Of a stretch of 64,000 nt of DNA, positions 19,380 through 62,150 are shown in pieces. The notes beneath the pieces were generated by a model, which saw nothing but the letters and a program-made list of their open reading frames with translations, was not told where the DNA came from and did no database searches. Position 1 is the stretch's first letter. Each line of letters starts with the position of its first letter. A program made the position numbers and the translations under genes. This stretch comes from an uncultured Bacteroidales bacterium (GTDB taxonomy: Bacteria; Bacteroidota; Bacteroidia; Bacteroidales; JAAYJT01). Location: NCBI GenBank assembly GCA_964349765.1, contig CAYGGZ010000010.1, positions 1,277-65,276 on the forward strand. The letters are read 5' to 3'.

Positions 19380-20225
19380 GTGATGGAGCAACTGTACATC
19401 AAAGTGGAACTCACCGCACCAAACAACGAGCAGTTAAGAGAGTTGCTGACCGCTAAGCTCCTGCAATCAGGCTTCGATAGCTTTATGGAAACAGATGAGG
19501 GAATCAATGCATATATCCCTTCGGATGAGTTTGATTCTAATCTGCTTATGAGTGTAATTGCTTCGTTCAACAACGCTGTTCAACTCGTTTCTATAGCGCC
19601 ACAAAAGCAGGAAAACTGGAATATATTGTGGGAAAGCAATTATGAGCCGGTTACAGTTGCAGGAAAATGTCTGGTACGAGCGCCATTTCATCCCCAAATG
19701 CCTGGGTTTGCTTATGAAATTACAATCCTGCCGAAAATGGCCTTCGGAACGGCACACCACGCAACAACAAAACTGATGATTGGTTTATTGCTGCAAAGCC
19801 AGCCAACAGGAAAAAAGGTTCTCGACATCGGATGTGGTACAGGAGTGCTTGCTATTCTGGCTTCAATGATGGGAGCTACCATTGTAACGGCGATAGATAA
19901 CGATGAGTGGGCAGTGAAAAACGCCATTGAAAACAACGAACTCAATGGAACCAATGTTGAGGTGTTTGCAGGCGATGCATCAGCCATTCCTGCCACAGAC
20001 TATGATCTTATTATGGCCAACATCAACCGCAATGTGTTGTTTGAGGATTTTGGAAATTACATAAGTCATCTGAGTAGAAACGGTAAAATTTTCCTTAGCG
20101 GTTTTTATGAGGAGGATATTGCAATAATCCAGGTTGAAGCCGCACGGTATGGCTTTGTGTGCGAATCGAAACATACGCTCGACGACTGGTTTGCTCTTGT
20201 TTTCGTAAAGGATACACAACAATGA
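19380..20225 (+). CDS. prmA: Ribosomal protein L11 methyltransferase
   Basis: 281 aa. AFGTAHHATT and the SAM-binding motif VLDIGCGTGVLAI. Confidence 0.85.
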   Translation: MMEQLYIKVELTAPNNEQLRELLTAKLLQSGFDSFMETDEGINAYIPSDEFDSNLLMSVIASFNNAVQLVSIAPQKQENWNILWESNYEPVTVAGKCLVRAPFHPQMPGFAYEITILPKMAFGTAHHATTKLMIGLLLQSQPTGKKVLDIGCGTGVLAILASMMGATIVTAIDNDEWAVKNAIENNELNGTNVEVFAGDASAIPATDYDLIMANINRNVLFEDFGNYISHLSRNGKIFLSGFYEEDIAIIQVEAARYGFVCESKHTLDDWFALVFVKDTQQ

Positions 20226-23200
20226 AGATCCTGGTTTCTTCAAAACGATACCAGCTCATTAAAGGCGCAGGCATGTTTTTTATGTTTGCGATCGCACAAC
20301 TAACCGTTACCCTGACAAACGGACAACAACACTCGTTCAGCACCAACAAATACTTGCTTGCTACAGAAATTGAATCATTTTTCGGGGAAAGCCAAGGTTT
20401 TCACAGGCAACGGCTGAATGATGTTGCCTCAAACATGCAGCGTTCGCTGGTTGCCGGCCATTTTAGCGATTTTCATGTGGCGGAAATGGCGAAGGTTGCT
20501 AACCGTATGATGAATCTGCAACTTCCTGCTTATCCTACGTTTTATTATTATTTTGGGAACGCATTAGAAATTATAAAATTCAATCAGGCTGAGTCCTTTT
20601 TCAACGATTGGAATTCCGGGGTGCTTGTTTTGCTACAGGAGCCAGTGCGAACCAACCTCGACAAGTTCTTGTTGTTCAGCCACCAGTTTTTTAATCAACG
20701 TACTCTTTATGAAAGCAATTCGGTTAGATGGGATATAAGAAACGGTTCGTGGAAGTTTCAAACAGACTCTATACCACTGCTGATTGTTACCGGAGCTGAT
20801 TTGATCTGTTATGCCGGAGCCGATAGCAGCAGAATAAAAAATGCATCTGGCACATATGACCCCTTCAGTATGAAGTGGACTGGAATTACCGGGCAGGTAA
20901 CCTGGGAAAGGGTATCATTTAGCAGCCACAAGGTGCACGCCTTATTGGGCAGGTATAGTATTCACATGCGATCATCAGGTTTTGAAGCCGATACCGCCTG
21001 GCTTCACTATCCTGAGTTATTATCTGTTCCCATTGCCGGAACGCTTCATGAACAGGCATCTCCAGGAATTACCCCGGCTAATTCAAACTACCCCAAATTT
21101 ACCTCTTTCGAAACTTCATTAAACATTACCAATATCTTCCCAGGAATTGACTTTACCGGTGGAATTGCTCTTGAGGGAAATAGGATGACAGGTTTTGGCG
21201 CTTTCAGAAACGATGCTGTGTTACTCATTCATTATCAGGAAAAACCGGTGGTTAGGCTTGCTTCCCGAAACTTTAACATTCGCAGCGATCGGATTACATC
21301 GCAGAGAGCGGCTACCACGATTTACTTCTGTAACGACTCTATTGTACATCCCGGCCTCGAAATGCGTTACTCAAACTCAAGCAATGAATTAACTCTTTTA
21401 CGGTCAGCAACCGGACTGCCTTCAAGCCCTTTCTTTAGCTCCTATCATGGCGTTGATATATATGTTGAAGCAATTTATTGGAATACCGGCCGTGCGGAAA
21501 TAGAATTCGGCGGTATACGCGGTCTGAAAAGAGAAAGTGAGGCTGTTTTTGAATCACAATACTATTTTACACCAACACGATTTTATCAGTTACAGGGCAT
21601 TGACGAATATCATCCCCTGGTTGCATTAAACGATTATGCACGGCTGATTTCTTCAAACACTTTTTACCATGAAGAACTTGCAACTTTCATGGGAATTAAC
21701 CTTTCGCAGGTTAGCGCAATGTTGATACATCTAACAACAAACGGCTTTGTACTCTACAACCCTGGAAGCGGAAAAGTGGTGGTAAAGGAGAGGTTAAGCC
21801 ACTATCTCGAGGCGTTTAACCATAAAAAAGACCATGACGTTATCCGAATTGTTTCGAGGGTCAACGAAACTGTAAACGCGGTTCTGAACATCGAAAACTG
21901 TAATTTGAGCTTAAGGGGTGTGCCCGAAGCAGTACTAAGTAATACACAACGTGTGAACATTTACCCGGCAGGAGGAGAAATTGTGCTTACAAGAAACCTC
22001 GGAATAGAGTTCACAGGGAATATTCATGCAGGATTTTTCGATTTTTACGTTGGACCTAGCGTTTTTGATTACAATAGCTTCAGTTTGCTCCTGCCTCAGG
22101 TTGACTCGCTCAGCTTTGTAGTTCCGGTAGAAACACCCGGCAAACCAAAAGAGCTTGTAAGAGTGAAAACCGTTATTTCAAATATCAGCGGAGAATTATT
22201 GATTGGCCATCCCCATAACAAGTCGGGAAGATTGAACCAACCTCAATATCCGGCGTTCCGCTCAAAAACCGACTCTTATGTGTATTTCAATCAGACCTAT
22301 GTGCAAAATGGGGTTTACGGAAAAGATCGGTTCTACTACCATGTTTTACCGTTTGAAATTGATAGCCTGCACAGCTTTACAACAGTTGGAATGAGTTTCA
22401 ACGGATATCTTTTTTCGGGAGGTATCATTCCGGAAATTAGCGAGCCACTCAGAGTACAGCCCGACTTTTCGCTTGGCTTTCAAACTTCCTCACCGCTCAA
22501 TAATGCTCCCGTATACAACGGTGCTGCTTCTTTTACAGGATCACTGGCACTAAGTCATAAAGGCTTGATTGGGGCTGGAATTATCAGTTATCTGAACGCT
22601 ACGATGGAAGGAGATTCCTTGCTATTCCATCCCGATTCTCTTATGGCGAACCGGTGCAATTTCCATTTGGCTGAAATCCCCGGATCGCTTGAGTTTCCGG
22701 TTGTACAAGCAGAAAATACCGCAATTGTCTGGCATCCCGGCGAGGGATTGGCTATTCTCACAAACCACCCCTCTTATTCTTTTATGCTTTTCAATCATCA
22801 GATTCAACTGAGCGGGACACTCGAATTCGGCCCCAAAGGTTTATTTGGCGCCGGAACAGCCAGATGGCAACAAGCTGTATGGCAATCTGGCAGATATAGT
22901 TTCACACGCAATTCCCTGTCGGCTGAATGGTGCGATTTTTCCCTGGAGCATCCGTCGCACGGAATAATATTCATGTCAACAGGATATGATTTTGACTTCG
23001 AACTCCTTTCAAGGCAAGGGCAGTTTAACCGAAATGGCGATAACGCTGTTGTTTCGTTTCCCTTTAACAAGTACTCTACCCGTGCCGACGCTTTTAGGTG
23101 GGAGGCCGATTACGACGAGATTCACCTGAACAACGAATATACTGCCGAACGCCTGAGCATCTCAACACTAAACTCTAGCAGGCTTTCACCGTCTGATTTT

Positions 23201-24712
23201 GGGAAGTCGGTTTTGCTTTCGTTGTGCCCCGACCAGGATTCACTTGGGTTTTTCGCCATAACAGCTCAGTACGATATGCGAAACCTCGAACTAAATGCAT
23301 TTGAAGTGCCTTCTGTTCAGATAGCTAATACCGCTGTTATTCCTGTTGATGGCCGTGTTACAATCAGTAACAACGGAACTATCCGCCCTTTGAAAGGTGC
23401 CATGCTATACATTTCTCCTGAGAACCTGATTCACACTTTCTATAATGTTGATATTGAAATTTACAACAGAAATTCTTTTAGTGCGTCGGGATACCTGATG
23501 TTTAACGGCGGTGAGGGATATGAAAGCGAAATACATTTTTCAGAAATTAAAGCCGATTCGCTTGGAATAGCATTCGCCAATGCACAAATACATGGCGCCG
23601 GAATGTTTATTAATCCCTATTTCCGCTTCAAAGGCTCGGTTCATATCGGAAGTGCGGCCAGATATCTGTTCTTAAACGGCTATTACAAGCCAACACAATA
23701 TTTTAAAGGATTTAATCCTAAGTGGGTGCGGTTTGCCTCTGCGCTACAAAGCAATAACATTGTGTTCCCTGCAACCTTTCCGATGAAAGGCGAAGCCGGC
23801 GAAACAATCTATGCCACATTACACTACAATTTAACATCAGGCAAATTGTACCCGGCTTTCTTTGCCTCTAAAACATTTTCGGGCGACACCGCGCTGATTG
23901 TTGCAGAGGGCTTTGTTGGGTATGACACTGTTGGTAAATTCTACTACATCTCAAACACCCCTTATGAACATGGAGGCTCAAACCGTAACATCATACGGTT
24001 CAATACGCAGGAATCGAAAATAAGCGGCAATGGGAAAATCAACTTTGGCCATGAGTTTGGACGCGTAAGCATGCTCCCGGCCGGTTCAATAAAACATTAT
24101 GCTACCGCCGATTCAACAATTTTAGAATTGTTTGCTGCGTTTGATTTTTTCTTTTCAAGAGAGGCATTTGATCTGATAATAAAGAAGTTTGAAAATGCAA
24201 CGTTGCAAAACGTTTCGTTTAAACCCACAGTTGAAGCAGGTATTCATGCGCTTTTCAAGCCTGATGAAGCTGAGCGGTTGATATCGGAGCTCGGCACACG
24301 CGGTTCTCTTCGCAGGCTGCCCGATAATCTTTCGCGCGCCTTGATATTTAACGACTTAACAATGATCTGGAATCATCGAACCAGGTCGTTTACAAGCACA
24401 GGCCCTTTAGGTGTAATGATTATAAACGGACAGCAGGTGAACAAATATGTTGAAGGTCGGGTAGAGATCATTCGTCGTACGGAAGGCGATGCTTTCAATA
24501 TTTACCTCGAACAAGCGCCAAACCAATGGTTCTTTTTTCATTACAGTGCTGGAGTATTGCATGCAGTATCGTCGCTGGATGAGTTTAACTCGGCAATTGC
24601 CAAAATGAGTGAAGAACGCCGCATGCTTCCGGCCCGTAAGCAGGAAGTGCCGTACCGCTTTGTTGCCGGCACTACTCATATGCGAGATGCCTTTGTGCAA
24701 CGAATGCGCTAA
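20222..24712 (+). CDS. Very large (~1496 aa) uncharacterised, probably secreted or envelope protein
   Basis: The long ORF begins at 20159 in the track. I prefer ATG 20222, which forms an ATGA overlap with the prmA stop and gives MKILVSSKRYQLIKGAGMFFMFAIAQL with a signal-like segment. No family recognised. It is rich in N/S/F/Y and looks beta-rich. Confidence 0.6.
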   Translation: MKILVSSKRYQLIKGAGMFFMFAIAQLTVTLTNGQQHSFSTNKYLLATEIESFFGESQGFHRQRLNDVASNMQRSLVAGHFSDFHVAEMAKVANRMMNLQLPAYPTFYYYFGNALEIIKFNQAESFFNDWNSGVLVLLQEPVRTNLDKFLLFSHQFFNQRTLYESNSVRWDIRNGSWKFQTDSIPLLIVTGADLICYAGADSSRIKNASGTYDPFSMKWTGITGQVTWERVSFSSHKVHALLGRYSIHMRSSGFEADTAWLHYPELLSVPIAGTLHEQASPGITPANSNYPKFTSFETSLNITNIFPGIDFTGGIALEGNRMTGFGAFRNDAVLLIHYQEKPVVRLASRNFNIRSDRITSQRAATTIYFCNDSIVHPGLEMRYSNSSNELTLLRSATGLPSSPFFSSYHGVDIYVEAIYWNTGRAEIEFGGIRGLKRESEAVFESQYYFTPTRFYQLQGIDEYHPLVALNDYARLISSNTFYHEELATFMGINLSQVSAMLIHLTTNGFVLYNPGSGKVVVKERLSHYLEAFNHKKDHDVIRIVSRVNETVNAVLNIENCNLSLRGVPEAVLSNTQRVNIYPAGGEIVLTRNLGIEFTGNIHAGFFDFYVGPSVFDYNSFSLLLPQVDSLSFVVPVETPGKPKELVRVKTVISNISGELLIGHPHNKSGRLNQPQYPAFRSKTDSYVYFNQTYVQNGVYGKDRFYYHVLPFEIDSLHSFTTVGMSFNGYLFSGGIIPEISEPLRVQPDFSLGFQTSSPLNNAPVYNGAASFTGSLALSHKGLIGAGIISYLNATMEGDSLLFHPDSLMANRCNFHLAEIPGSLEFPVVQAENTAIVWHPGEGLAILTNHPSYSFMLFNHQIQLSGTLEFGPKGLFGAGTARWQQAVWQSGRYSFTRNSLSAEWCDFSLEHPSHGIIFMSTGYDFDFELLSRQGQFNRNGDNAVVSFPFNKYSTRADAFRWEADYDEIHLNNEYTAERLSISTLNSSRLSPSDFGKSVLLSLCPDQDSLGFFAITAQYDMRNLELNAFEVPSVQIANTAVIPVDGRVTISNNGTIRPLKGAMLYISPENLIHTFYNVDIEIYNRNSFSASGYLMFNGGEGYESEIHFSEIKADSLGIAFANAQIHGAGMFINPYFRFKGSVHIGSAARYLFLNGYYKPTQYFKGFNPKWVRFASALQSNNIVFPATFPMKGEAGETIYATLHYNLTSGKLYPAFFASKTFSGDTALIVAEGFVGYDTVGKFYYISNTPYEHGGSNRNIIRFNTQESKISGNGKINFGHEFGRVSMLPAGSIKHYATADSTILELFAAFDFFFSREAFDLIIKKFENATLQNVSFKPTVEAGIHALFKPDEAERLISELGTRGSLRRLPDNLSRALIFNDLTMIWNHRTRSFTSTGPLGVMIINGQQVNKYVEGRVEIIRRTEGDAFNIYLEQAPNQWFFFHYSAGVLHAVSSLDEFNSAIAKMSEERRMLPARKQEVPYRFVAGTTHMRDAFVQRMR

Positions 24713-43714: not shown

Positions 43715-43745
43715 GCAGAAAATCCTGAACAATCAGGTTTTCTGC
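43715..43745. terminator. Bidirectional hairpin between convergent gcvP and the 416-aa gene
   Basis: gcagaaaatcctga-acaa-tcaggttttctgc (13 bp with one bulge), flanked by A-runs upstream and T-runs downstream. The 3' arm overlaps the last codons of the minus-strand gene. Confidence 0.6.
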
Positions 43746-44983
43746 TTTTTCTTTCGTGCTGCAGGAAAGAGCACGTTATTCAGAATCAGCCGGTAACCCG
43801 GCGAATTTGGATGCAGGTTGAGATTGGTTGGGGGATCGCCAACGAAATGTTTGTAGTCCTCGGGATCGTGGCCACCAAAGAAAGTAAATGTGCCTTTGCC
43901 GAAAGTTCCATGAATGTATCGCGCTTCGCCCCAGGCTTTGTTTTCGCCAAGGATAACAACAGTGGGTTTTATTGTTTCGCGGCGAAATGCTGTTGATTGC
44001 CCCATAAATCCCTCTATAATTGTTTCATGATTTTGGTTGAGCATTGTGGGTACAGGATCCCACTTAGCAGAAAACTCAAACAGGGTAAAATGATCCAACG
44101 CTTGATTACGACCGGTTTTGGGAACGTCGATACTTGATTTTGCGTATTCGTAGGGATTCATCACAAGTTGGAAATTATGAAAAGCAAAGGTTCGACTAAA
44201 GTCAAGGTTTTCTTGTGCGTTTGGATCAGCCGGATCGCCGTCGAACATAGCTTCGACTATATCAACTCCTTCGGCTGCAAGGGCAATATCAAGACTTTCG
44301 GGTGCTGAGCACATGGCAAAAAGGTAGCCTCCACCCGCAACAAATTCCTGAATGTTTTTTGCAACAGCTAATTTTAATTGCGAAACTGTTCCAAATCCAA
44401 GCCTGTCGGCCATTTCATTCAAAATTCTTTCCTCCTGCTGATACCAGGGTGCATTGCGATATGCTGCATAAAATTTTCCGAACTGACCAGTGAAGTCTTC
44501 ATGGTGAAGATGAAGCCAATCGTACATGGGCAAAACGCCTTTGATAATTTCTTCGTTGTAGATAATATCATAGGGTATTTCGGCATAGGTGAGAGCCAGA
44601 GTTACTGCATCGTTCCATGGCTGGGTGAGAGGGGGAATATAAACAGCAATCCTTGGAGCTTTGTGCAGTTTTACCACCTCCATGTTTACCGAAGGGGAGG
44701 AGATATACTGAAGAATACCTGCAGCCTGTGTCTCAGATATTACCTGGTATGATATATCACGAACTATGCATTCATTTTCAAATTGCTGATGGTGGTCGAA
44801 CATAAAACTTCCGCCCCGATAGTTCAACAGCCAACTTACCTCAACGTCATACGTAAGAACGTAGTAAGCAATTCCATACGCTTTTAGGTGGTTGCGCTGC
44901 GTGTTGTCCATTGGAATGAGGATATGGGCTGCCTTGAGGTTAAATGAGATCAGAACCAGGATCAGAAGCAATATGTTTTTCAT
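43733..44983 (-). CDS. Conserved hypothetical secreted protein
   Basis: 416 aa. Signal peptide MKNILLLILVLISFNLKA. No catalytic motif recognised. Confidence 0.5.
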   Translation of the reverse strand: MKNILLLILVLISFNLKAAHILIPMDNTQRNHLKAYGIAYYVLTYDVEVSWLLNYRGGSFMFDHHQQFENECIVRDISYQVISETQAAGILQYISSPSVNMEVVKLHKAPRIAVYIPPLTQPWNDAVTLALTYAEIPYDIIYNEEIIKGVLPMYDWLHLHHEDFTGQFGKFYAAYRNAPWYQQEERILNEMADRLGFGTVSQLKLAVAKNIQEFVAGGGYLFAMCSAPESLDIALAAEGVDIVEAMFDGDPADPNAQENLDFSRTFAFHNFQLVMNPYEYAKSSIDVPKTGRNQALDHFTLFEFSAKWDPVPTMLNQNHETIIEGFMGQSTAFRRETIKPTVVILGENKAWGEARYIHGTFGKGTFTFFGGHDPEDYKHFVGDPPTNLNLHPNSPGYRLILNNVLFPAARKKKQKT

Positions 44984-52512: not shown

Positions 52513-52751
52513 TAGTTCACAAAAAAATACCTATTTTAGCCTGATTAATTCATAAATATCTATATTTTAGTGAAATTTAGTGCTTTGGTGTCTTTGTGGC
52601 GAAAAGTTCTTTCCCCCTAAGTCGCTAATATACAAAGGAAACACTAAGTTTATGAATTAAGCAGGTTAGCACTAATTAATGGGTGTAATTGTCTGAACAC
52701 GGCACATCACAAGAAAGGATAAATTATAAAGCCAAAAAGAAAGGATCGGTT

Positions 52752-54851
52752 ATGAGAACACATTTACTGTTACAGATTCTATTGCTGGCTGCGGTAATAA
52801 CCGCCCATAACCATCTATTTGCGCAGTCAGATTGGTTCTGGCAGAATCCTCTACCCACGGGGAGTTCTCTCGTTAGAGTCTCATTCATCGACGCCAACAG
52901 AGGAACGGCGGTGGGAGAGGCTGGCACAATTCTTAGCACCACCAATGGCGGCTTAAACTGGATAAGCCAGTCAAGCGGAACGACGAAGTGGTTAGTAGGC
53001 GTCTGTTTCACTGACGCCAACACAGGAACGGCGGTAGGAGAGGGGGGCACAATTCTTCGTACCACCGATGGCGGCTTAAACTGGATAAGCCAGTCAAGCG
53101 GAACGACAAATAATCTCAGGAGTGTCTCCTTCACCGACGCCAGCACTGGAACGGTGGTGGGAGATGCTGGCATAATTCTTCGCACCACCGATGGCGGCGC
53201 AAGCTGGATAAGGCAGACAAGTGGAACTACGGAGCATCTTGAGAGCGTCTCCTTCACCGACGCCAACACCGGAACGGCGGTGGGATGGGGTGGAACAATT
53301 CTTCGCACCAGCAATGGCGGCGCAAGCTGGATAAGCCAGTCAAGTGGAACAACAGGGTGGCTCTTTGGCGTCTCCTTCACCGACGCCAACACAGGAACGG
53401 TGGTGGGAAGTGATGGCACAATTCTTAGCACCACCAATGGCGGCGCAAGCTGGATAAGCCAATCAAGCGGAACCATGCGTGATCTCTATGACGTCTCCTT
53501 CACCGACGCCAACACAGGAATGGCGGTGGGATGGGGTGGCACAATTCTTCGCACCACCAATGGCGGCGCAAGCTGGATAAGCCAGTCAAGCGGAACGACG
53601 AGGTGGCTCATAGGCGTCTGCTTTACAGACGCCAACACAGGAACGGCGGTGGGAGACTTTGGCGCAATTCTTCGCACCACCAATGGCGGCGCAAGCTGGA
53701 TAAGCCAGTCAAGCGGAATACAACATGATCTCTTTGGCGTCTTCTTCACCGACGCCAATAGAGGAACAGCGGTGGGATGGGGTGGGACAATTCTTCGCAC
53801 CACCAATGGCGGCTTAAACTGGATAATCCAGACATGCGGAACGACGCAGCATCTCTGGGGCGTCTCCTTCACCGACGCTTACACAGGAACTGCGGTGGGG
53901 GAGGGTGGCACAATTCTTCGCACCACCGATGGCGGCTCAACTTGGATAAGCCAGACAAGCGGAACGACGCGACATTTCTATGCCCTCTGCTTCACCGACG
54001 CCAACACAGGAACGGCGGTGGGAGACTTTGGCACAATTCTTCGCACCACCAATGGCGGCTTAAGCTGGACAAGCCAGTTAAGCGGAACGACGAATTGGCT
54101 CTTTGCCGTCTGCTTCACCGACGCCAACACAGGAACGGCGGTGGGAGACTTTGGCACAATTCATCGCACCACCAATGGCGGCTCTAGCTGGACAAGTCAG
54201 TCAAGCGGAACGACGGCGTCTCTCTATGGCGTCTCCTTCACCGACGCCAACACAGGAACGGCGGTGGGATGGGGTGGCACAATTCTTCGCACCACCAATG
54301 GCGGCTTAAACTGGATACGCCAGTCAAGTGGAACGACGGTGCCACTCTATGGCGTCTCCTTTACCGATGCCAACATAGGAACGGTGGTGGGAAGCTATGG
54401 CACAATTCTTCGCACCACCGATGGCGGTGCAAGTTGGAAAATTCAGACAATCGGAACGATGCAGCATCTCTTTGGCGTCTCCTTCACCGACGCCAACACA
54501 GGAACGGCGGTGGGATTGGGTGGCACAATTCTTCGCACCACCACTGGAGGCGTTGGAATTAGGGAAGACTTTCTCTCCATTAACCCATCAGGTTTTTCGT
54601 TAATGCAGAACTTCCCTAATCCCTTTTACCCAAGTACCACAATACGGTTTTCTGTTCCCAGGTCAGGATTCGTCTCCCTTACGGTTTACGATCAGCTTTG
54701 GCGGGAAGTTGCTGTTTTGGTAAGTGGAGAGAGACCGGAGGGCACATATACGGTTGTGTGGGATGCAGCAGCACTAACCGGTGGCTTATATTTTTACCGC
54801 CTTCAGGGTACCGAATTCTCCGAAACGAAAAAAATGATATTGCTCAGATAA
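52752..54851 (+). CDS. Paralogue 1: secreted 14-blade Asp-box (BNR/Ycf48-like) repeat protein with T9SS type-A sorting domain
   Basis: Start taken at ATG 52752 (MRTHLLLQILLLAAVITAHNHLFAQ signal). There are 14 units of the form GTILRTTNGGxxWISQSSGTTxxLxxVSFTDANTGTAVGxx. The CTD is QNFPNPFYPSTTIRF...GGLYFYRL...KKMILLR. Confidence 0.85.
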   Translation: MRTHLLLQILLLAAVITAHNHLFAQSDWFWQNPLPTGSSLVRVSFIDANRGTAVGEAGTILSTTNGGLNWISQSSGTTKWLVGVCFTDANTGTAVGEGGTILRTTDGGLNWISQSSGTTNNLRSVSFTDASTGTVVGDAGIILRTTDGGASWIRQTSGTTEHLESVSFTDANTGTAVGWGGTILRTSNGGASWISQSSGTTGWLFGVSFTDANTGTVVGSDGTILSTTNGGASWISQSSGTMRDLYDVSFTDANTGMAVGWGGTILRTTNGGASWISQSSGTTRWLIGVCFTDANTGTAVGDFGAILRTTNGGASWISQSSGIQHDLFGVFFTDANRGTAVGWGGTILRTTNGGLNWIIQTCGTTQHLWGVSFTDAYTGTAVGEGGTILRTTDGGSTWISQTSGTTRHFYALCFTDANTGTAVGDFGTILRTTNGGLSWTSQLSGTTNWLFAVCFTDANTGTAVGDFGTIHRTTNGGSSWTSQSSGTTASLYGVSFTDANTGTAVGWGGTILRTTNGGLNWIRQSSGTTVPLYGVSFTDANIGTVVGSYGTILRTTDGGASWKIQTIGTMQHLFGVSFTDANTGTAVGLGGTILRTTTGGVGIREDFLSINPSGFSLMQNFPNPFYPSTTIRFSVPRSGFVSLTVYDQLWREVAVLVSGERPEGTYTVVWDAAALTGGLYFYRLQGTEFSETKKMILLR
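52860..54550 (+). repeat. 14 tandem 123-bp (41-codon) coding repeats inside paralogue 1
   Basis: The core ggcacaattcttcgcaccacc...ggcggc..agctggataagccagtcaagcggaacgacg...gtctccttcaccgacgccaacacaggaacggcggtggga recurs with period 123 bp. Confidence 0.9.
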
Positions 54852-54960
54852 GGGGCAATAGCAACTAACACGGCAAACTCTGACGCTTTCTTTGCCTTCC
54901 TGCCTGCCGAAGGCACTTCGGAACGTCGGTTGATAGGGTTCTGGTAAAGAACAGGAAAGA

Positions 54961-55010
54961 AATTAGACCGAATTAATCGTTTAAGCATTGTCAAATGCTG
55001 AATTTGGGTT
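54961..55010. repeat. Modular intergenic repeat, copy 6 (module A, inverted) between paralogues 1 and 2
   Basis: aattagaccgaattaatcgtttaagcattgtcaaatgctgaatttgggtt is the reverse complement of the aacccaaatt.agcatttgacaatgcttaaacgattaattcgg type. Confidence 0.8.
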
Positions 55011-55031
55011 CACGGAAAACGAATATATTTG
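55003..55031 (+). promoter_or_regulatory. Putative -33 (TTTG) and -7 (TAtaTTTG) promoter of paralogue 2
   Basis: TTTG is at 55003-55006, inside the end of repeat copy 6. tatatttg is at 55024-55031, giving a 17-nt spacer and a leader of about 88 nt. Confidence 0.5.
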
Positions 55032-55119
55032 TAGTTCACAAAGCATTGTGTGTGTTTTTGCTAGACGCTTTAGTTGCATTTGTTACTTGAATAAACCAAA
55101 CAAAAAGAAAAGAACACTT

Positions 55120-57222
55120 ATGAAAACACATTTACTGTTGCGCCTTCTATTACTTACTGCGGTAATAACCGCCCATAACCATCTATTTGCGCAGTCAGGT
55201 TGGTTCTACCAGAATCCGCTGCCCCAGGGAAATCCTCTTTATGGCGTCTCCTTCACCGATGCCAACACAGGAACGGCGGTTGGAGCAATGGGCACAATTA
55301 TTCGCACCACCGATGGCGGCTTAAACTGGATAATCCAGTCAAGCGGAGCAGAGGAGTGTCTTTATGGCGTCTCCTTCACAGACGCCAACACAGGAACGGC
55401 GGTGGGAGACTGGGGCACAATTCTTCGTACCACCGATGGCGGCTTAAACTGGATAAGCCAGTCAAGCGGAACGACAAATAATCTCAGGAGTGTCTCCTTC
55501 ACCGACGCCAGCACTGGAACGGTGGTGGGAGAGGGTGGCACAATTCTTCGCACCACCGATGGTGGCTCAAGCTGGATAAGTCAGTGGAGCGGAACGATGG
55601 AGTGGCTCTTGGGCGTCTCCTTCACCGACGTTAACAGAGGAACGGTGGTGGGATTGGGTGGCACAATTCTTCGCACCACCAATGGCGGCGCAAGCTGGAT
55701 TAGCCAGACAAGCGGAACGAAGTATGATCTCCATAGCGTCTGCTTCACCGACGCCAACAGAGGAACGGCGGTGGGAGGCTGGGGCACAATTCTTCGCACC
55801 ACCAATGGCGGCGCAAGCTGGATAAGCCAGACAAGCGGAACGACGCAGTGGCTCTGGAGCGTCTGCTTCACCGACGTCAACACAGGAACGGCGGTGGGAG
55901 ACTTGGGCGCAATTCTTCGCACCACAAACGGCGGCGCAAGCTGGATAAGCCAGTCAAGCGGAACAACGTATAATCTCCATAGCGTCTCCTTCACCGACGC
56001 CAACACCGGAACGGTGGTGGGACAGGCTGGCACAATTCTTCGCACCACCGATGGCGGCGCAAGCTGGATAAGCCAGTTAAGCGGTACGACGGAGGGGCTC
56101 TTTGGCGTCTGCTTCACTGACGCCAACACCGGAACGGCGGTGGGAAATTGGGGCACAATTCTTCGCACCACCAATGGAGGCTCAAGCTGGATAAGCCAGT
56201 CAAGCGGAACGACGCAGGTACTCTATGGCGTCTCCTTCACCGACGCCAACACAGGAACTGTGGTGGGAAGCTGGGGCACAATTCTTCGCACCACCAATGG
56301 CGGCGCAAGCTGGATAAGCCAGTCAAGCGGAACGACGCAGTTGCTCTTAGGCGTCTCCTTCACCGACGCCAACACAGGGACTGCGGTGGGAGAGGGTGGC
56401 ACAATTCTTCGCACCACCAATGGCGGTTCAAGCTGGGTAAGCCAGTCAAGCGGAACGACGCAGTGGCTCTGGAGCATCTGCTTCACCGATGCCAACACAG
56501 GAACGGCGGTGGGAGAATGGGGCACAATTCTTCGCACCACCGATGGCGGCTCAAGCTGGATCAGCCAGTCAAGCGGAACGACGAATTCTCTCCGTGCCGT
56601 CTCCTTCACCGACGCCAACACCGGAACGGTGGTGGGAGACTTGGGCACAATTCTTCGCACCACCAATGGCGGCGCAAGCTGGATAAGCCAGTCAAGCGGA
56701 ACGTGGGCGTTGCTCATTGGCGTTTCCTTCACCGACGCCAATACAGGAATGGCGGTGGGAACAGGTGGCACAATTCTTCGCACCACCAATGGTGGCTCAA
56801 GCTGGATAAGCCAGTCAAGCGGAACGATGCAGCATCTCTATGGCGTCACCTTTACCGACACCAACATAGGAACGGTGGTGGGAGACTTCGGCACAATTCT
56901 TCGCACAAACACAGGAGGTGTTGTGGGAATTAGGGAAGACTTTCTCTCCATTAACCCATCAGGTTTTTCGTTAATGCAGAACTTCCCTAATCCCTTTTAC
57001 CCAAGTACCACAATACGGTTTTCTGTTCCCAGGTCAGGATTCGTCTCCCTTACGGTTTACGATCAGCTTTGGCGGGAAGTTGCTGTTTTGGTAAGTGGAG
57101 AGAGACCGGAGGGCACATATACGGTTGTGTGGGATGCAGCAGCACTAACCGGTGGCTTATATTTTTACCGCCTTCAGGGTACCGAATTCTCCGAAACGAA
57201 AAAAATGATATTGCTCAGATAA
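55120..57222 (+). CDS. Paralogue 2: secreted 14-blade Asp-box repeat protein with T9SS sorting domain
   Basis: Start at ATG 55120 (MKTHLLLRLLLLTAVITAHNHLFAQ). It has 14 blades. The CTD-coding DNA appears identical by eye to that of paralogue 1. Confidence 0.85.
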   Translation: MKTHLLLRLLLLTAVITAHNHLFAQSGWFYQNPLPQGNPLYGVSFTDANTGTAVGAMGTIIRTTDGGLNWIIQSSGAEECLYGVSFTDANTGTAVGDWGTILRTTDGGLNWISQSSGTTNNLRSVSFTDASTGTVVGEGGTILRTTDGGSSWISQWSGTMEWLLGVSFTDVNRGTVVGLGGTILRTTNGGASWISQTSGTKYDLHSVCFTDANRGTAVGGWGTILRTTNGGASWISQTSGTTQWLWSVCFTDVNTGTAVGDLGAILRTTNGGASWISQSSGTTYNLHSVSFTDANTGTVVGQAGTILRTTDGGASWISQLSGTTEGLFGVCFTDANTGTAVGNWGTILRTTNGGSSWISQSSGTTQVLYGVSFTDANTGTVVGSWGTILRTTNGGASWISQSSGTTQLLLGVSFTDANTGTAVGEGGTILRTTNGGSSWVSQSSGTTQWLWSICFTDANTGTAVGEWGTILRTTDGGSSWISQSSGTTNSLRAVSFTDANTGTVVGDLGTILRTTNGGASWISQSSGTWALLIGVSFTDANTGMAVGTGGTILRTTNGGSSWISQSSGTMQHLYGVTFTDTNIGTVVGDFGTILRTNTGGVVGIREDFLSINPSGFSLMQNFPNPFYPSTTIRFSVPRSGFVSLTVYDQLWREVAVLVSGERPEGTYTVVWDAAALTGGLYFYRLQGTEFSETKKMILLR
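55230..56915 (+). repeat. 14 tandem 123-bp coding repeats inside paralogue 2
   Basis: Same repeat core and the same 123-bp period. Confidence 0.9.
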
Positions 57223-57271
57223 GGGGCAATAGCAACTAACACGGCAAACACCGACGCTTTCTTTGCCTTCC

Positions 57272-57298
57272 TGCGTGCCGAAGTGCCTTCGGCACGCA
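57272..57298 (+). terminator. Perfect 12-bp hairpin in the 3' flank of paralogue 2; degenerate versions follow paralogues 1, 3 and 4
   Basis: tgcgtgccgaag-tgc-cttcggcacgca. Copies at about 54905-54925, 59640-59660 and 62200-62222 keep only ccgaag-gca-cttcgg. No U-tract follows. Confidence 0.45.
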
Positions 57299-57331
57299 TG
57301 TGAATTGGGCTATGGTAAAGAACAGGAAAGA

Positions 57332-57381
57332 AATTAGACCGAATTAATCGTTTATGCATTGTCAAATGCTGAATTTGGGTT
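57332..57381. repeat. Modular intergenic repeat, copy 7 (module A, inverted) between paralogues 2 and 3
   Basis: Same as copy 6 with one substitution (tttatgcatt). Confidence 0.8.
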
Positions 57382-57402
57382 CACGGAAAACGAATATATT
57401 TG
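57374..57402 (+). promoter_or_regulatory. Putative -33/-7 promoter of paralogue 3
   Basis: Same sequence block as for paralogue 2, with tatatttg at 57395-57402. Confidence 0.5.
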
Positions 57403-57490
57403 TAGTTCACAAAGCATTGTGTGTGTTTTTGCTAGACGCTTTAGTTGCATTTGTTACTTGAATAAACCAAACAAAAAGAAAAGAACACTT

Positions 57491-59587
57491 ATGAAAACAC
57501 ATTTACTGTTGCGCCTTCTATTATTTACTGCGGTAATGACCGCCCATAACCATCTATTTGCGCAGTCAGGTTGGTTCTACCAAAATCCGCTGCCCACAGG
57601 GAATATTCTCTGGGGCGTCTCCTTCACCGATTCCAACACAGGGACAACGGTGGGAGGGAATGGCACAATTCTTCGCACCACCGATGGCGGCTTAAACTGG
57701 ATAATCCAGTCAAGCGGAACGAAGGAGCATCTCTATGGCGTCTGCTTCACCGACGCCCAAACAGGAACCGTGGTGGGAGATAATGGCACAATTCTTCGCA
57801 CCACCGATGGCGGCTCAAGCTGGATAAGCCAGTCAAGCGGAACGACAAATAATCTCAGGAGTGTCTCCTTCACGGACGCCAGCACAGGAACGGCGGTGGG
57901 AGAATGGGGTACAATTCTTCGCACCACCGATGGGGGCTCAAGTTGGATAAGTCGGTGGAGCGGAACGATGGAGTGGCTCTTGGGCGTCTACTTCACCGAC
58001 GTTAACAGAGGAACGGTGGTGGGAGCATGGGGCACAATTCTTAGCACCACCAATGGCGGCTCAAGCTGGATAAGCCAGTCAAGCGGAACAACGCTTGCTC
58101 TCTATGGCGTCTCCTTCTCCGACGCCAGCAGAGGAACGGCGGTGGGATCAGGTGGCACAATTCTTCGCACCACCAATGGCGGCTCAAGCTGGATAAGCCA
58201 GTCAAGCGGAACAACGCGTGCTCTCTATGGCGTCTCCTTCACCGACGCCAACACAGGAACGGCGGTGGGAGAATGGGGCACAATTCTTCGCACCACCGAT
58301 GGCGGCACAAGCTGGATAAGCCAGTCAAGCGGAACGACGTGGAGTCTCAATGGTGTCTCATTCACCGGTGACACCACCGGAACAGCGGTGGGAGGTTCTG
58401 GCACAATTCTTTGCACCACCAATGGCGGCTTAAACTGGGTAAACCAGTCAAGTGGAACAACGCATAATCTCTATGACGTCTTCTTTACCGACGCCACCAC
58501 CGGAACAGCGGTGGGAGGTTCTGGCACAATTCTTCGCACCACCAATGGCGGCTTAAACTGGGTAAACCAGCCAAGCGGAACAACGCTTAATCTCTATGAC
58601 GTCTTCTTTACCGACGCCAGCACAGGAACGGTTGTCGGAATGGATGGCACAATTCTTCGCACAACCGATGGCGGCTTAAGCTGGATAAGCCAGTCAAGCG
58701 GAACGTCGGAGTTTCTCTATGGAGTCTCCTTCACCGACGCCAACACTGGAACGGTGGTGGGCTCGGATGGCACAATTCTTCGCACCACCGATGGCGGCTT
58801 AAGGTGGATAAGCCAGTCAAGCGGAACGATGAATTCTCTCCGTGCCGTCTCCTTCACCGACGCCAACACAGGAACGGCAGTGGGATGGGCTGGCACAATT
58901 CTTCGCACCACCGATGGCGGCTCAAGCTGGATCAGCCAGTCAAGCGGAACGACGAATCCTCTCCGTGCCGTCTCCTTCACCGACGCCAACAGAGGAACGG
59001 CGGTGGGAGCATTGGGCACAATTCTTCGCACCACCGATGGCGGCTTAAACTGGATAAGCCAGTCAAGCGGAACGACGCAGTGGCTCTATGGCGTCTTCTT
59101 CACCGATGCCAACACAGGAACAGCAGTGGGATGGGCTGGCACAATTCTTCGCACCACCGATGGCGGCACAAGCTGGATAAGGCAGTCAAGCGTAACAACG
59201 GTGTCTCTCTTGAGCGTCTCCTTCACCGACGCCAACACAGGAACGGCGGTGGGAGAATGGGGCACAATTATTCGCACTCTACCCGTTACGGGAATTAGGG
59301 AAGACTTTTTTTCCACCAACCCATCAGGTTTTTCGTTAATGCAGAACTTCCCTAATCCCTTTTACCCAAGTACCACAATACGGTTTTCTGTTCCCAGGTC
59401 AGGATTCGTCTCCCTTACGGTTTACGATCAGCTTTGGCGGGAAGTTGCTGTTTTGGTAAGTGGAGAGAGACCGGAGGGCACATATACGGTTGTGTGGGAT
59501 GCAGCAGCACTAACCGGTGGCTTATATTTTTACCGCCTTCAGGGTACCGAATTCTCCGAAACGAAAAAAATGATATTGCTCAGATAA
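57491..59587 (+). CDS. Paralogue 3: secreted 14-blade Asp-box repeat protein with T9SS sorting domain
   Basis: Start at ATG 57491 (MKTHLLLRLLLFTAVMTAHNHLFAQ). It has 14 blades. The CTD is nearly identical to those of paralogues 1 and 2. Confidence 0.85.
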   Translation: MKTHLLLRLLLFTAVMTAHNHLFAQSGWFYQNPLPTGNILWGVSFTDSNTGTTVGGNGTILRTTDGGLNWIIQSSGTKEHLYGVCFTDAQTGTVVGDNGTILRTTDGGSSWISQSSGTTNNLRSVSFTDASTGTAVGEWGTILRTTDGGSSWISRWSGTMEWLLGVYFTDVNRGTVVGAWGTILSTTNGGSSWISQSSGTTLALYGVSFSDASRGTAVGSGGTILRTTNGGSSWISQSSGTTRALYGVSFTDANTGTAVGEWGTILRTTDGGTSWISQSSGTTWSLNGVSFTGDTTGTAVGGSGTILCTTNGGLNWVNQSSGTTHNLYDVFFTDATTGTAVGGSGTILRTTNGGLNWVNQPSGTTLNLYDVFFTDASTGTVVGMDGTILRTTDGGLSWISQSSGTSEFLYGVSFTDANTGTVVGSDGTILRTTDGGLRWISQSSGTMNSLRAVSFTDANTGTAVGWAGTILRTTDGGSSWISQSSGTTNPLRAVSFTDANRGTAVGALGTILRTTDGGLNWISQSSGTTQWLYGVFFTDANTGTAVGWAGTILRTTDGGTSWIRQSSVTTVSLLSVSFTDANTGTAVGEWGTIIRTLPVTGIREDFFSTNPSGFSLMQNFPNPFYPSTTIRFSVPRSGFVSLTVYDQLWREVAVLVSGERPEGTYTVVWDAAALTGGLYFYRLQGTEFSETKKMILLR
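57600..59280 (+). repeat. 14 tandem 123-bp coding repeats inside paralogue 3
   Basis: Same repeat core and the same 123-bp period. Confidence 0.9.
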
Positions 59588-59752
59588 GGGGCAATAGCAA
59601 CTAACACGGCAAACACCGACGCTTTCTTTGCCTTCCTGCGTACCGAAGGCACTTCGGAACGTCGGTTGATAGGGTTCTGGTTATGCTCAGGAAAGAAATT
59701 ATTGTGGCTGCTCCGCTCTCATTTTGGCGGGCAACATGTTCTGGCATTTCAA

Positions 59753-59760
59753 TATATTTG
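59753..59760 (+). promoter_or_regulatory. -7 box (TAtaTTTG) upstream of paralogue 4
   Basis: tatatttg within ttcaatatatttgtccatg. It implies a leader of about 285 nt. Confidence 0.4.
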
Positions 59761-60044
59761 TCCATGCATTTTTACCCCAAAATCAAACTATTAATTACAG
59801 ATGTAAAATATTGGATGGGTGGGGTGGAAACGATTAAACATTATAGTGCCATGCAAGTGATAAGTAACTATATGTAACTTGACTGAAAAAGTGTTTTTTT
59901 GATATAAAACTCAATAAATTGTTTATGTTTGTTCCTGCATTGAATGAATCGATAAACGGGTTCTCCGATGTTATCAAATCAATAAGAAAAAATGAATTTT
60001 TAGGACCCCCCAACAATTTTAAAAACAAAAAGAAAGGATCACTT

Positions 60045-62150
60045 ATGAAAACACACTTATTGTTGCAAATTCTATTGCTGACTGTGGTAATAACCGCCCA
60101 TAACCGTCTATATGCCCAGCAAGGTTGGTTTTGGCAGAATCCGCTGCCCACAGGGAATATTCTCTGGGGTGTCTCCTTCACCGATTCCAACACAGGGACA
60201 GCGGTGGGAGGGAATGGCACAATTCTTCGCACCACCGATGGCGGCTTAAACTGGATAAGCCAGTCAAGCGGGGCGTGGCAGGATCTCAGGTGCGTCTCCT
60301 TCACCGACGCCAACACAGGAACGGCAGTGGGAACAAGTGGCACAATTCTTCGCACCACCAATGGCGGCTCAAGCTGGATACGCCAGACAAGCGGAACGGT
60401 TGACTGGCTCTATTGCGTGTTTTTCACCGACGCCAACACAGGAACGGTAGTGGGAGAGGGTGGCACAATTCTTCGCACCATCAATGGTGGCTCAAGCTGG
60501 ATAAGCCTGTCAAGCGGAACGACGAATCATCTCAATGGCGTCTTCTTCACCGACGCCAACACAGGAACCGTGGTGGGAAATAATGGCATAATTCTTCGCA
60601 CCACCAATGGCGGATTAAGCTGGATAAGCCAGTCAAGCGGAGAGGGGTATGATCTCCATGACGTTTACTTCACCGACGCCAACAGAGGAACGGTGGTGGG
60701 ATCAGGTGGCACAATTCTTCACACCACCGATGGAGGCTTAAGCTGGGTAAGCCAGTCAAGCGGAGTGGGGTCGTCTTTCTATAGCGTCTCCTTTTCCGAC
60801 GCCAACACCGGAACGGCGGTGGGAACTGGTGGAAGAATCCTTCGCACGACCAATGGCGGCTCAAGCTGGACAAGCCAGTCAAGCGGAACAACAGAATTGC
60901 TCTTGGACGTCTATTTTACTGGCGCAAACACAGGAACGGCGGTGGGATGGGATGGTACAATTCTTCGCACAACCAATGGCGGCACAAGCTGGACAAGCCA
61001 GTCAAGCGGAACATGGCAGGATCTCTCTAGTGTATCCTTCATCGACGCCCACACTGGAACGGTTGTGGGAAATGGTGGCACAATTCTTCACACCACCAAT
61101 GGCGGCTCAAGCTGGATAAGCCAGTCAAGCGGAACAACGCATCATCTCTATGACGTCTCCCTCACCGACTCCAACACAGGAACGGTGGTCGGAATGGATG
61201 GCACAATTCTTCGCACAACCGATGGCGGCTCAACCTGGATAAGCCAGTCAAGCGGAACGACACAGTGGCTCTATGGCGTCTTCTTTACCGACTTCAATAC
61301 AGGAACGGCGGTGGGAAGCTGGGGCACAATTCTTCGCACCACCGATGGCGGCTCAAGCTGGATAAGCCAGTCAAGCGGAACGTCGGAGTTTCTCTATGGA
61401 GTCTACTTCACCGACGCCAACACTGGAACGGTGGTGGGAAGCTGGGGCACAATTCTTCGCACCACCGATGGCGGTTCAAGCTGGATAAGCCAGTCAAGCG
61501 GAACGACGGACCATCTCGAGAGCGTCTCCTTCACTGACGCCAATAGAGGAATGGTGGTGGGAGCGGATGGCACATTTCTTCGCACCACCAATGGCGGCTT
61601 AAGCTGGATAAGCCAGTCAAGCGGAACGGGGCAGGATCTCAAGAGCGTCTCCTTCGCCGACGCCAACACAGGAATGGCGGTTGGAAACTACGGCACAGTT
61701 CTTCGCACCACCAATGGTGGCTTAAGCTGGAAAAGCCAGTCATGCGGAACAACGGAGCATCTTTATGGCGTCTCCTTCACCAACGCCAACACCGGAACGG
61801 TGGTGGGAAAATTCGGAATAATTCTTCGCACCAACACAGGAGGTATTGTGGGAATTAGGGAAGACTTTCTCTCCATCAACCCGTCAGGATTCTCTTTGAT
61901 GCAGAACTACCCAAATCCGTTTTACTCCAATACCACCATACAATTTACTATCCCCCGGTCAGGATACGTCTCCCTTACTGTTTATGATCAGCAATTGCGA
62001 AAAGTTGCAGTGTTGGTAAGTGGAGAGAGATCGGCAGGGACATATTCTGTAGTGTGGGATGCTCCCCCATCACTGGCAGGTGGCTTGTATTTTTACCGCA
62101 TTCAGAGTAGCGAATTCTTCGAAACGAAAAAAATGATATTGCTCAGATAA
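60045..62150 (+). CDS. Paralogue 4: secreted 14-blade Asp-box repeat protein with a diverged T9SS sorting domain
   Basis: Start at ATG 60045 (MKTHLLLQILLLTVVITAHNRLYAQ). It has 14 blades. The CTD QNYPNPFYSNTTIQF...GGLYFYRIQ...KKMILLR differs from 1-3 at many nucleotides. Confidence 0.85.
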   Translation: MKTHLLLQILLLTVVITAHNRLYAQQGWFWQNPLPTGNILWGVSFTDSNTGTAVGGNGTILRTTDGGLNWISQSSGAWQDLRCVSFTDANTGTAVGTSGTILRTTNGGSSWIRQTSGTVDWLYCVFFTDANTGTVVGEGGTILRTINGGSSWISLSSGTTNHLNGVFFTDANTGTVVGNNGIILRTTNGGLSWISQSSGEGYDLHDVYFTDANRGTVVGSGGTILHTTDGGLSWVSQSSGVGSSFYSVSFSDANTGTAVGTGGRILRTTNGGSSWTSQSSGTTELLLDVYFTGANTGTAVGWDGTILRTTNGGTSWTSQSSGTWQDLSSVSFIDAHTGTVVGNGGTILHTTNGGSSWISQSSGTTHHLYDVSLTDSNTGTVVGMDGTILRTTDGGSTWISQSSGTTQWLYGVFFTDFNTGTAVGSWGTILRTTDGGSSWISQSSGTSEFLYGVYFTDANTGTVVGSWGTILRTTDGGSSWISQSSGTTDHLESVSFTDANRGMVVGADGTFLRTTNGGLSWISQSSGTGQDLKSVSFADANTGMAVGNYGTVLRTTNGGLSWKSQSCGTTEHLYGVSFTNANTGTVVGKFGIILRTNTGGIVGIREDFLSINPSGFSLMQNYPNPFYSNTTIQFTIPRSGYVSLTVYDQQLRKVAVLVSGERSAGTYSVVWDAPPSLAGGLYFYRIQSSEFFETKKMILLR
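60155..61845 (+). repeat. 14 tandem 123-bp coding repeats inside paralogue 4
   Basis: Same repeat core, with somewhat more substitutions than in paralogues 1-3. Confidence 0.9.

Follow-up and report, generated by a model that had tools for sequence, protein, structure and literature searches.

How can the DNA of 56 protein-coding repeats be kept alike, synonymous sites included, while a few fixed codons in every repeat differ from unit to unit, and what keeps that diversity in place? The question is raised by a stretch of 64,000 nucleotides (the window) on contig CAYGGZ010000010.1 of an uncultured Bacteroidales bacterium. Four tandem open reading frames (ORFs) on its + strand, called g0 to g3 here, occupy 52689-62150, or 52752-62150 when read from ATG, and each encodes 14 blades of a predicted beta-propeller protein. 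We favour, with a probability of roughly 0.7, the explanation that the 56 blades form a concertedly evolving pool, that diversifying selection acts on the loops of one propeller face, and that the locus is in this way a repertoire of surface binders.

Variation along the repeat unit

Extraction in register bore out the 56 repeat units of 123 bp that an earlier note on this DNA had counted. The period is exactly 123 bp (41 amino acids) with no insertions or deletions, and each gene holds 13 full units and a 14th that is truncated C-terminally. The arrays lie on the + strand at 52878-54593 in g0 (full units 52878-54476; Tandem Repeats Finder also gives a period of 123), 55246-56964 in g1 (full units 55246-56844), 57617-59329 in g2 (57617-59215) and 60171-61889 in g3 (60171-61769). 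The unit statistics were computed on the 52 full units unless 56 are stated. The median blade identity is 0.68-0.76 across the four genes, and 0.83 in a related array of another genome, called L003 here, where the published criterion for recent amplification is 60% (PMC9218822).

The 21-mer GGCACAATTCTTCGCACCACC occurs exactly in 29 of the 56 units, with one mismatch in 20 and with two mismatches in 4. All of these 53 matches are within the four genes, and shuffled sequences are expected to give 0. Three blocks had been described as recurring almost verbatim in nearly every blade. This is right for the 21-mer (49/56 at 0-1 mismatch) but not for the other two blocks, which have 0-2 mismatches in only 31 and 29 of the 52 units and as many as 7 mismatches.

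Per-codon amino-acid entropy reproduces all three variable patches that had been proposed. The first is codons 14 and 15, which precede GTILRT (3.19 and 2.95 bits), the second is codons 37, 38, 40 and 41 around the conserved Leu39 (3.28, 3.15, 2.92 and 1.87 bits), and the third is the GGxxW pair, codons 26 and 27 (1.79 and 1.10 bits). Codon 36 (1.94 bits), codon 2 (S/C/F/Y, 1.54 bits) and the dimorphisms A/V at codon 11, N/D at codon 23 and T/R at codon 8 had been overlooked and are added here. By entropy and by nonsynonymous differences, two patches are hypervariable, both recurring every 123 bp in each array. An example of patch A is 52917-52922 on the + strand (codons 14-15, unit nucleotides 40-45), and one of patch B is 52983-53006 on the same strand (codons 36-41 and, in the following unit, codons 1-2, with the fixed Leu39 in between).

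In the scaffold, 10.5% of the sites and 15% of the third positions differ between units, and the proportion of synonymous differences (pS) is 0.186. The DNA had been called nearly invariant, third positions included, which is therefore overstated. The conservation is nonetheless strong, as the scaffold diversity of codons for the same amino acid is 0.152, far under the 0.69 expected if codons were drawn from host usage.

Probable selection on the hypervariable codons

Unit codons 14, 15, 37, 38 and 40 were taken as the hypervariable codons. From pairwise counts, their proportion of nonsynonymous differences (pN) is 0.631 against the scaffold pS of 0.186, and so the ratio is 3.4 (bootstrap 2.9-4.0), or 6.5-fold with Jukes-Cantor correction. 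When only the 47 scaffold-nearest pairs are considered, the scaffold pS goes down to 0.097 with a hypervariable pN of 0.636, a ratio of 6.6. The ratio of nonsynonymous to synonymous substitution (dN/dS) in the scaffold is 0.38. Substitutions are thus not evenly spread over the unit, and the same five positions are the most variable ones within 31 homologues from other lineages, which supports the claim that diversity is retained at defined positions.

A simple alternative is that the arrays were recently amplified from one unit and that the loop positions drift neutrally under relaxed constraint. The same loop positions are the least conserved ones family-wide, as surface loops should be, and the scaffold dN/dS is that of ordinary purifying selection elsewhere in the unit. 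However, neutral sites cannot outpace synonymous ones, as the hypervariable codons do in both comparisons above. The synonymous sites inside these codons are conserved like those elsewhere, and the same-amino-acid synonymous diversity is equal in both (0.160 for hypervariable codons, 0.152 for the scaffold). The residue usage is also strongly skewed. Relative to the NNK expectation, W is 3.8-fold, Y 3.0-fold, N 2.9-fold and D 2.7-fold over-represented, while P, C and T are depleted 5-8-fold (P 0.12x) and V, I and K about 4-fold. The usage is tilted to W, Y, N, D, E and H and away from P, C, T, V, I and K, and a composition rich in W/Y/N/D/E/H is typical of binding sites, carbohydrate-binding sites especially. 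We consider neutral drift unlikely.

Another explanation without selection is that the patches are old and saturated, and are shielded from homogenisation because short conversion tracts in the identical scaffold cannot cross mismatches. The crossovers described below do fall in the 60 nt of identical central scaffold, and codon 14 is saturated at all three positions. On the other hand, the synonymous sites of the patches are unsaturated. Pairs of units with the same amino acid use different codons in only 6-12% of cases at codons 15, 37, 38 and 40, where 0.69 would be expected, and in 15% at Leu39, whose third base is C in 48/52 units. The third base hardly varies in four of the five hypervariable codons while bases 1-2 are randomised, and the hypervariable third positions and Leu39 are less diverged than the hypervariable first and second positions. 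For example, at least 94% of the units have T or G as the last base of codons 38 and 40; similar patterns are seen at codon 26 (NNA in 51/52) and codon 2 (TNC in 47/52). Codon 15 is NNT in 36 units of the window, NNG in 15 and NNC in 1, but NNG in 13/13 units of L003. As the third base is fixed differently in the two genomes while bases 1-2 vary, diversification appears to have been independent in the window and in L003, restarting after a separate founder unit in each. Since the hypervariable synonymous sites are not elevated and the third base is fixed, neutral drift, saturated conversion-barrier patches and a codon-blind local hypermutator are excluded together; shielded patches in particular we regard as quite improbable.

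Targeted hypermutation was also considered, in which the loop codons are overwritten with copies of a master template by a diversity-generating retroelement (DGR) or some other site-directed mutator. It would explain the uniform scaffold common to two genomes, and the combination of random bases 1-2 and an unchanging third base has a superficial likeness to AAY-templated DGR variation. Nevertheless, no reverse transcriptase was found among the window ORFs scanned, which were a subset, and no template copy was found beyond the four genes. In the scaffold, variability is not concentrated on adenines (A 6.2%, C 8.7%, G 4.7%, T 2.7%), and TGG, GAG and CAG, which are frequent at the hypervariable codons, cannot be made from AAT by adenine mutagenesis. 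Moreover, the units are the same across five samples save one single-nucleotide polymorphism. Such a mutator is very improbable here. The earlier note held that selection and a targeted process cannot be told apart from one sequence; the synonymous diversity of the hypervariable codons, their third bases and the lack of an adenine bias and of a reverse transcriptase in the ORFs scanned now decide this for selection. We infer that the diversity at these codons is kept by selection rather than by targeted mutation.

The third bases were also seen to be restricted in kind. At codons 15, 37, 38 and 40 they are almost only T or G ('NNK-like'), also in L003 (5147-6745). Pyrimidine-ending hypervariable codons take T (AAT 23, AAC 1) while the scaffold favours C (GGC 165, GGT 12).

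Location of the variable residues in the predicted fold

The protein of g1 was modelled with AlphaFold2 from a 30-sequence alignment, with a predicted local distance difference test (pLDDT) score of 89.5. The matches found by Foldseek were the highly repetitive WRAP double propeller 2ymu (the best match), Ycf48 (TMt 0.72-0.76, E about 1e-14) and the two-propeller GH74. According to the model, each protein consists of two seven-bladed Asp-box (Ycf48-like) beta-propellers in tandem.

In the modelled 41-residue unit, strand A consists of residues 39-41 of the preceding unit and 1-3, strand B of 9-13, strand C of 18-21 and strand D of 29-31. The Asp-box, T-T-D/N-G-G-x-x-W at unit positions 21-28, stands between the strands 18-21 and 29-31, that is, in the C-D loop; by definition the motif is SxDxGxTW-like and sits in the loop that connects strands C and D (PMC9218822). 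Patch A (codons 14-15) maps to the B-C loop. Of patch B, codons 36-38 belong to the D-A loop and codons 40, 41 and 2 are at the start of the innermost strand (A), so that the patch takes in both this loop and the beginning of strand A.

When a blade has four antiparallel strands, its B-C and D-A loops share one face of the propeller and its A-B and C-D loops the other; sialidases and WD40 proteins have their active or binding sites on the B-C/D-A face. Because the B-C and D-A loops are necessarily co-facial, the hypervariable residues are placed on a single face, opposite the Asp-boxes. Mapping the variable sites onto a predicted propeller had been suggested as a check, and the DSSP strand topology of the model gives this one-face answer.

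Homogenisation within the locus

The scaffold distance is flat at about 10.5%: 0.105 within a gene, 0.097 between genes at the same position and 0.106 between genes at other positions. There are no gene-diagnostic nucleotides among the four arrays. The termini of g1 and g3 have a pS of 0.35-0.40 compared with 0.186 for the arrays, and the g1 and g3 arrays are as alike as any others. The nucleotide-level homogenisation that had been proposed is thus upheld, and we infer that recombination is the homogeniser.

For a comparison between samples, five per-sample assemblies of the European Nucleotide Archive (MEGAHIT, k141) were reached by exact-protein look-up with the products of two neighbouring genes, the glycoside hydrolase family 97 (GH97) gene and the epimerase gene. 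Their flanks are identical to the window. Every unit in them equals a window unit with 0 nucleotide differences, in the same order, bar one point difference, which is a Ser-to-Gly change at hypervariable codon 14.

What varies among the per-sample assemblies is the copy number and order of units per gene, through whole-unit losses joined via clean hybrid units. A hybrid takes its 5' part and patch A from one unit and its 3' part and patch B from another, with the crossover in the identical central scaffold (60 nt). For example, b7 and b10 of g2 are missing in some of the assemblies, a hybrid junction joins b8 and b11 in g1, and a b9/b10 hybrid of g3 is present in two samples. The stretches shared at the junctions are 33-61 nt long, far under k=141, which makes real unequal recombination plausible and speaks against assembler error. 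The losses and hybrids suggest that units are shuffled.

One may then ask whether the whole pattern is an assembly artefact, that is, a chimeric or mis-joined short-read array and not genomic. The per-sample assemblies do differ in units per gene, and the C-terminal sorting domains (CTDs) are more alike in the window than in these assemblies. In the last 290 nt (54562-54851, 56933-57222 and 59298-59587), g0 and g1 of the window are identical and g2 differs at 4 positions, while the genes are 10-13/290 apart in the per-sample assemblies; g0 itself has 8 differences from assembly L098 in this region. We account for the sameness of the window CTDs either by recent conversion in this strain or by an effect of assembly or polishing. 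However, the units recur without differences and with their order kept in independent assemblies, and different units match exactly in register over 121 nt at most, a length below k=141, so that the arrays are resolvable. The independent genome L003 also shows the same 14 x 41 architecture and the same pattern. The uncertainty is therefore at most in copy number and order and not in the per-unit pattern, and we give an artefact hardly any weight.

Shared scaffold DNA and codon usage

Relatives of these proteins number more than 6,900 in the FCB group (Ignavibacteria, Bacteroidota, Calditrichota and KSB1), annotated just as 'YCF48-related' or 'T9SS sorting domain'. At the DNA level, one genome only of the species collection shares the repeats, namely L003, a Bacteroidota metagenome-assembled genome (MAG) with a single 723-aa gene of the 14 x 41 design. 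Its consensus unit differs from that of the window in three respects: one synonymous change, codons 29-30, and the hypervariable codons. It has array-specific fixed sites (nucleotide 24 is G in 13/13 units), and its own ratio of hypervariable to scaffold differences is about 7. Between the window and L003 the scaffold pS is 0.17 (0.04 when consensus is compared with consensus), against 0.56-0.60 for the CTD and 0.42-0.51 for the N-terminus.

The G+C content at third codon positions (GC3) of the window arrays is 0.60-0.65, compared with 0.44 (0.37-0.50) in 22 other host genes. The N-termini and CTDs of g0-g3 have 0.44-0.51 (CTDs 0.46). From sequence composition, the codon usage looks foreign to the host in the repeats only, and our best guess is that the array DNA was exchanged horizontally from a GC-richer lineage. 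Low-frequency scaffold variants are chiefly C>T and G>A. GC-biased gene conversion was considered as the reason for the high array GC3 and rejected, because it cannot give identical codon choice in two genomes. We also rejected the possibility that L003 is the same or a sister genome. Its flanks are unlike the window except for a weak T9SS-CTD-like tblastx match of about 43%, its neighbouring gene has a GC3 of 0.62, and the MAG is not among the best 80 relatives by DnaB and phosphoenolpyruvate carboxykinase (PEPCK), although a gene may be missing from an incomplete MAG.

It may even be, though we think it rather unlikely, that the array is a horizontally exchanged, self-homogenising cassette that gives FCB-group bacteria a combinatorial repertoire of surface receptors. 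The hybrids and unit losses between samples would then mean that shuffling of blades among about 56 units yields new faces on ecological timescales, and the foreign codon usage and the scaffold common with another genome would mean that array DNA moves apart from the signal peptide and sorting domain. If this were true, bacteria would have, in propeller form, an equivalent of the receptor or antigenic variation that works by cassettes.

A metagenome scan with the 21-mer gave no second multi-copy array besides L003; the single and double matches are related arrays (L013/L015, L012, L006, L011 and L016) that are 80-89% identical to the window consensus. L013 (Ga0082335_1005222) and L015 (ORJL011597260.1) come from different datasets and carry identical blades (...YFGTILRTTNGGASWTRQSSGTTNRLYY and ...DGGTILRTTNGGASWTSQSSGTTNDLNS). 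These blades belong to the same DNA-level repeat family, with 79-89% identity to the window consensus, and in L015 they sit N-terminally in a much longer protein of 1096 aa. Two high-identity homologues, P0020 (GC3 0.86) and P0119 (GC3 0.28), have hypervariable positions as in the window and a scaffold pS of 0.35-0.38. Recent amplification was considered for both and not established, their composition being so skewed.

Proposed mechanism and points against it

The explanation that we favour, homogenised blades with selected loops, would work as follows. Within each of the four genes and from one to another, unequal homologous recombination and gene conversion would keep the scaffold similar, synonymous sites included, and would also delete, duplicate and recombine units. 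Diversifying selection would act on the amino-acid identity at codons 14, 15, 37, 38 and 40, and more weakly at codons 2, 26, 36 and 41. The selected residues would occupy the B-C and D-A loops as well as the mouth of the central channel, opposite the Asp-box face. The outcome would be eight propeller faces with differing surfaces rich in aromatic residues and Asp/Asn/Glu/His. By analogy, the eight faces look like a repertoire of ligand-binding specificities, and we would guess at glycans as putative ligands.

Several points weigh against this explanation. Of the five hypervariable codons, codon 14 alone shows saturation at all three positions. The pN and pS values are pairwise counts on recombining repeats and not estimates of a recombination-aware site model, and the one-face placement follows from blade topology rather than from measured distances. 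The variants with lost units were seen in short-read (k141) assemblies, where a wrong path taken by the assembler could have produced them. As the window CTDs are closer to each other than those in the per-sample assemblies, part of the homogenisation may be an artefact. Finally, the conservation of scaffold DNA between two genomes, as read from their sequences, is left unexplained by simple concerted evolution.

An idealised scaffold with selected hypervariable contacts, known elsewhere, would here be extended to a predicted secreted bacterial Asp-box propeller. If the variable face binds ligands, environmental bacteria would have a large class of variable surface binders that is as yet uncharacterised. 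The locus offers a test system for recognition, with four genes, eight faces and defined positions, and it is of interest to protein engineering as a consensus scaffold from nature whose positions resemble a library. Most worth following is the testable question of horizontal repeat-array exchange, which is raised by the foreign codon usage and the conservation of the array across genomes.

Comparison with known systems

The closest parallel is found in fungi. Concerted evolution of the repeats of fungal NOD-like receptors (NLRs), together with positive selection at a few residues on one face, was described by Paoletti et al. (PMC1805685) and Dyrka et al. (PMC4986451). As in the HNWD/het-d/het-e WD40 repeats of Podospora anserina and the ankyrin (ANK) and tetratricopeptide (TPR) repeats of fungal NLRs (PMC1805685, PMC2873952, PMC4986451), the blades are near-identical in DNA within and between paralogues, and a handful of codons per repeat, on the interaction face of the propeller, appears to be under positive diversifying selection. 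HNWD-type repeats are exchanged between loci and are polymorphic in number, to which the unit losses and hybrids in the assemblies may correspond here, where assembler error is possible. Unlike the HNWD type, our locus is Asp-box/Ycf48-like and not WD40, is bacterial, and is without NOD/STAND or effector domains and without repeat-induced point mutation. Its proteins are predicted to be secreted through the T9SS (type IX secretion system) whereas the HNWD type is a cytoplasmic receptor, and its genes are in tandem and not dispersed. By analogy, then, the locus appears to work like the HNWD-type repeats of high internal conservation but is no member of the NLRs.

Among prokaryotic propellers, continuous amplification was described by Pereira and Lupas (PMC9218822), with Asp-box 'PSII-like' and Bacteroidetes cases included, and Hu et al. 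(PMC5587647) reported diverse hotspot sites within otherwise conserved, highly repetitive WD40s. Our proteins are similar to recently amplified propellers such as WRAP of Npun_R6612 (PDB 2ymu; PMC9218822) in that 14 blades make two 7-bladed propellers with an identity of 68-76%, and the array-specific fixed nucleotides of L003 agree with the test for independent amplification used in that work. Synonymous differences are few in both cases, yet the scaffold pS is 0.19 here while WRAP has none. Two further differences are that four paralogous genes draw on one unit pool, and that dN > dS at defined codons is quantified here. Our literature search found no dN > dS analysis at defined codons for Asp-box propellers, and no paper joining Ycf48-like propellers with T9SS.

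The photosystem II assembly factor Ycf48/HCF136 (PDB 2xbg, 5ojr) has the same blade family (PF14870) and the same seven-bladed fold. The locus is not orthologous to it, as the NCBIfam equivalog scores of 205-218 fall short of the cut-off of 326. It also differs in its double propeller with a T9SS tail, in its idealised blades and in the lack of photosynthesis genes in the window. DGR targets are similar in that variation is limited to a few codons of the binding surface and the third base is kept, but they have one C-terminal variable region instead of 56 variable modules, and the locus has no reverse transcriptase among the ORFs scanned and no template repeat, adenine specificity or between-sample variation.

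The zinc-finger minisatellites of PRDM9 and the repeats of TAL effectors are also near-identical tandem coding repeats with diversity at a few ligand-contacting residues, and their alleles arise by unit shuffling. Both are DNA-binding folds of eukaryotes or plant pathogens, structurally and evolutionarily unrelated to the locus. PRDM9 is also treated in PMC8925151. The comparison with leucine-rich repeat and ankyrin binders that had been drawn before stands as a design analogy, a scaffold with a diversified face, but not as membership of one family. The pattern of a scaffold with variable contacts is thus known from other repeat families and is not described for the Asp-box/Ycf48-like one.

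Gene products and neighbourhood

All four genes, read on the + strand, share a Sec-type signal peptide (MKTHLLL...LFAQ), a short N-terminal closing strand (WFWQNPLP), the 14 blades and a T9SS sorting domain. The gene g0 (52752-54851, 699 aa) was defined from its ORF and translation and matches the Pfam family PSII_BNR with E=2.4e-49. Its signal peptide, MKTHLLLRLLLLTAVITAHNHLFA followed by QS (52752-52826), was recognised by eye in the translation, and its T9SS type A sorting domain (54594-54848) matches Por_Secre_tail below the Pfam cut-off. The genes g1 (55120-57222, 700 aa) and g2 (57491-59587, 698 aa) have the architecture of g0. Their sorting domains are at 56965-57219, found with NCBIfam TIGR04183, and at 59330-59584, read from the translation. 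The gene g3 (60045-62150, 701 aa; PSII_BNR E=7.5e-62) is built likewise but its termini are more divergent, and its sorting domain (61890-62147) was also found with TIGR04183. An exact-protein look-up of g3 gave no record.

The repeats score 168.7 and 209.7 bits with PSII_BNR (Pfam PF14870, Ycf48-like), for which the cut-off is 27. For the type A sorting domain, TIGR04183 gives 23.3 bits in g1 and 28.4 bits in g3, above the cut-off of 23, and the Pfam model PF18962 gives a marginal 18-22 bits against 27. With 205.6 and 218.5 bits, the proteins stay below the cut-off of 326 for the Ycf48 equivalog NF010237. PSII_BNR and the T9SS tail are the only domains found in the four genes, with no NOD/effector (NLR/STAND) architecture. 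With their predicted Sec export and T9SS sorting, the products are probably displayed on the cell surface or released. Independent but indirect support for T9SS export in this organism is given by an M1-family peptidase at 6425-8368, which also bears a T9SS sorting domain (Por_Secre_tail 29.3 bits).

The neighbourhood consists of chromosomal genes: DnaB, pullulanase, a major facilitator superfamily transporter and GH97 upstream, and an epimerase and UDP-glucose dehydrogenase downstream. DnaB and PEPCK of the window are 62-64% and 75-76% identical to their nearest species representatives, all of them Bacteroidota. Identities this low indicate that the host belongs to an uncultured, poorly represented Bacteroidota lineage. 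A 707-aa gene past the right end of the window was considered as a fifth paralogue and is not one.

Some minor observations were also made. Pfam gave no match at E<=1e-4 for three ORFs of the window, 20159-24712 (1517 aa), 12347-13621 (424 aa) and 43733-44983 (416 aa). About 5 kb past the right end of the window lies an intergenic 77-bp tandem repeat (L106, 5279-5425), and its copy number appears to vary across the five assemblies, as gene coordinates shift by 77-bp steps. Upstream of g0, an intergenic 20-nt inverted repeat has its arms at 52537-52556 and 52649-52668, 90% complementary and 92 nt apart. It could flank an invertible or regulatory element, and its orientation is alike in all assemblies.

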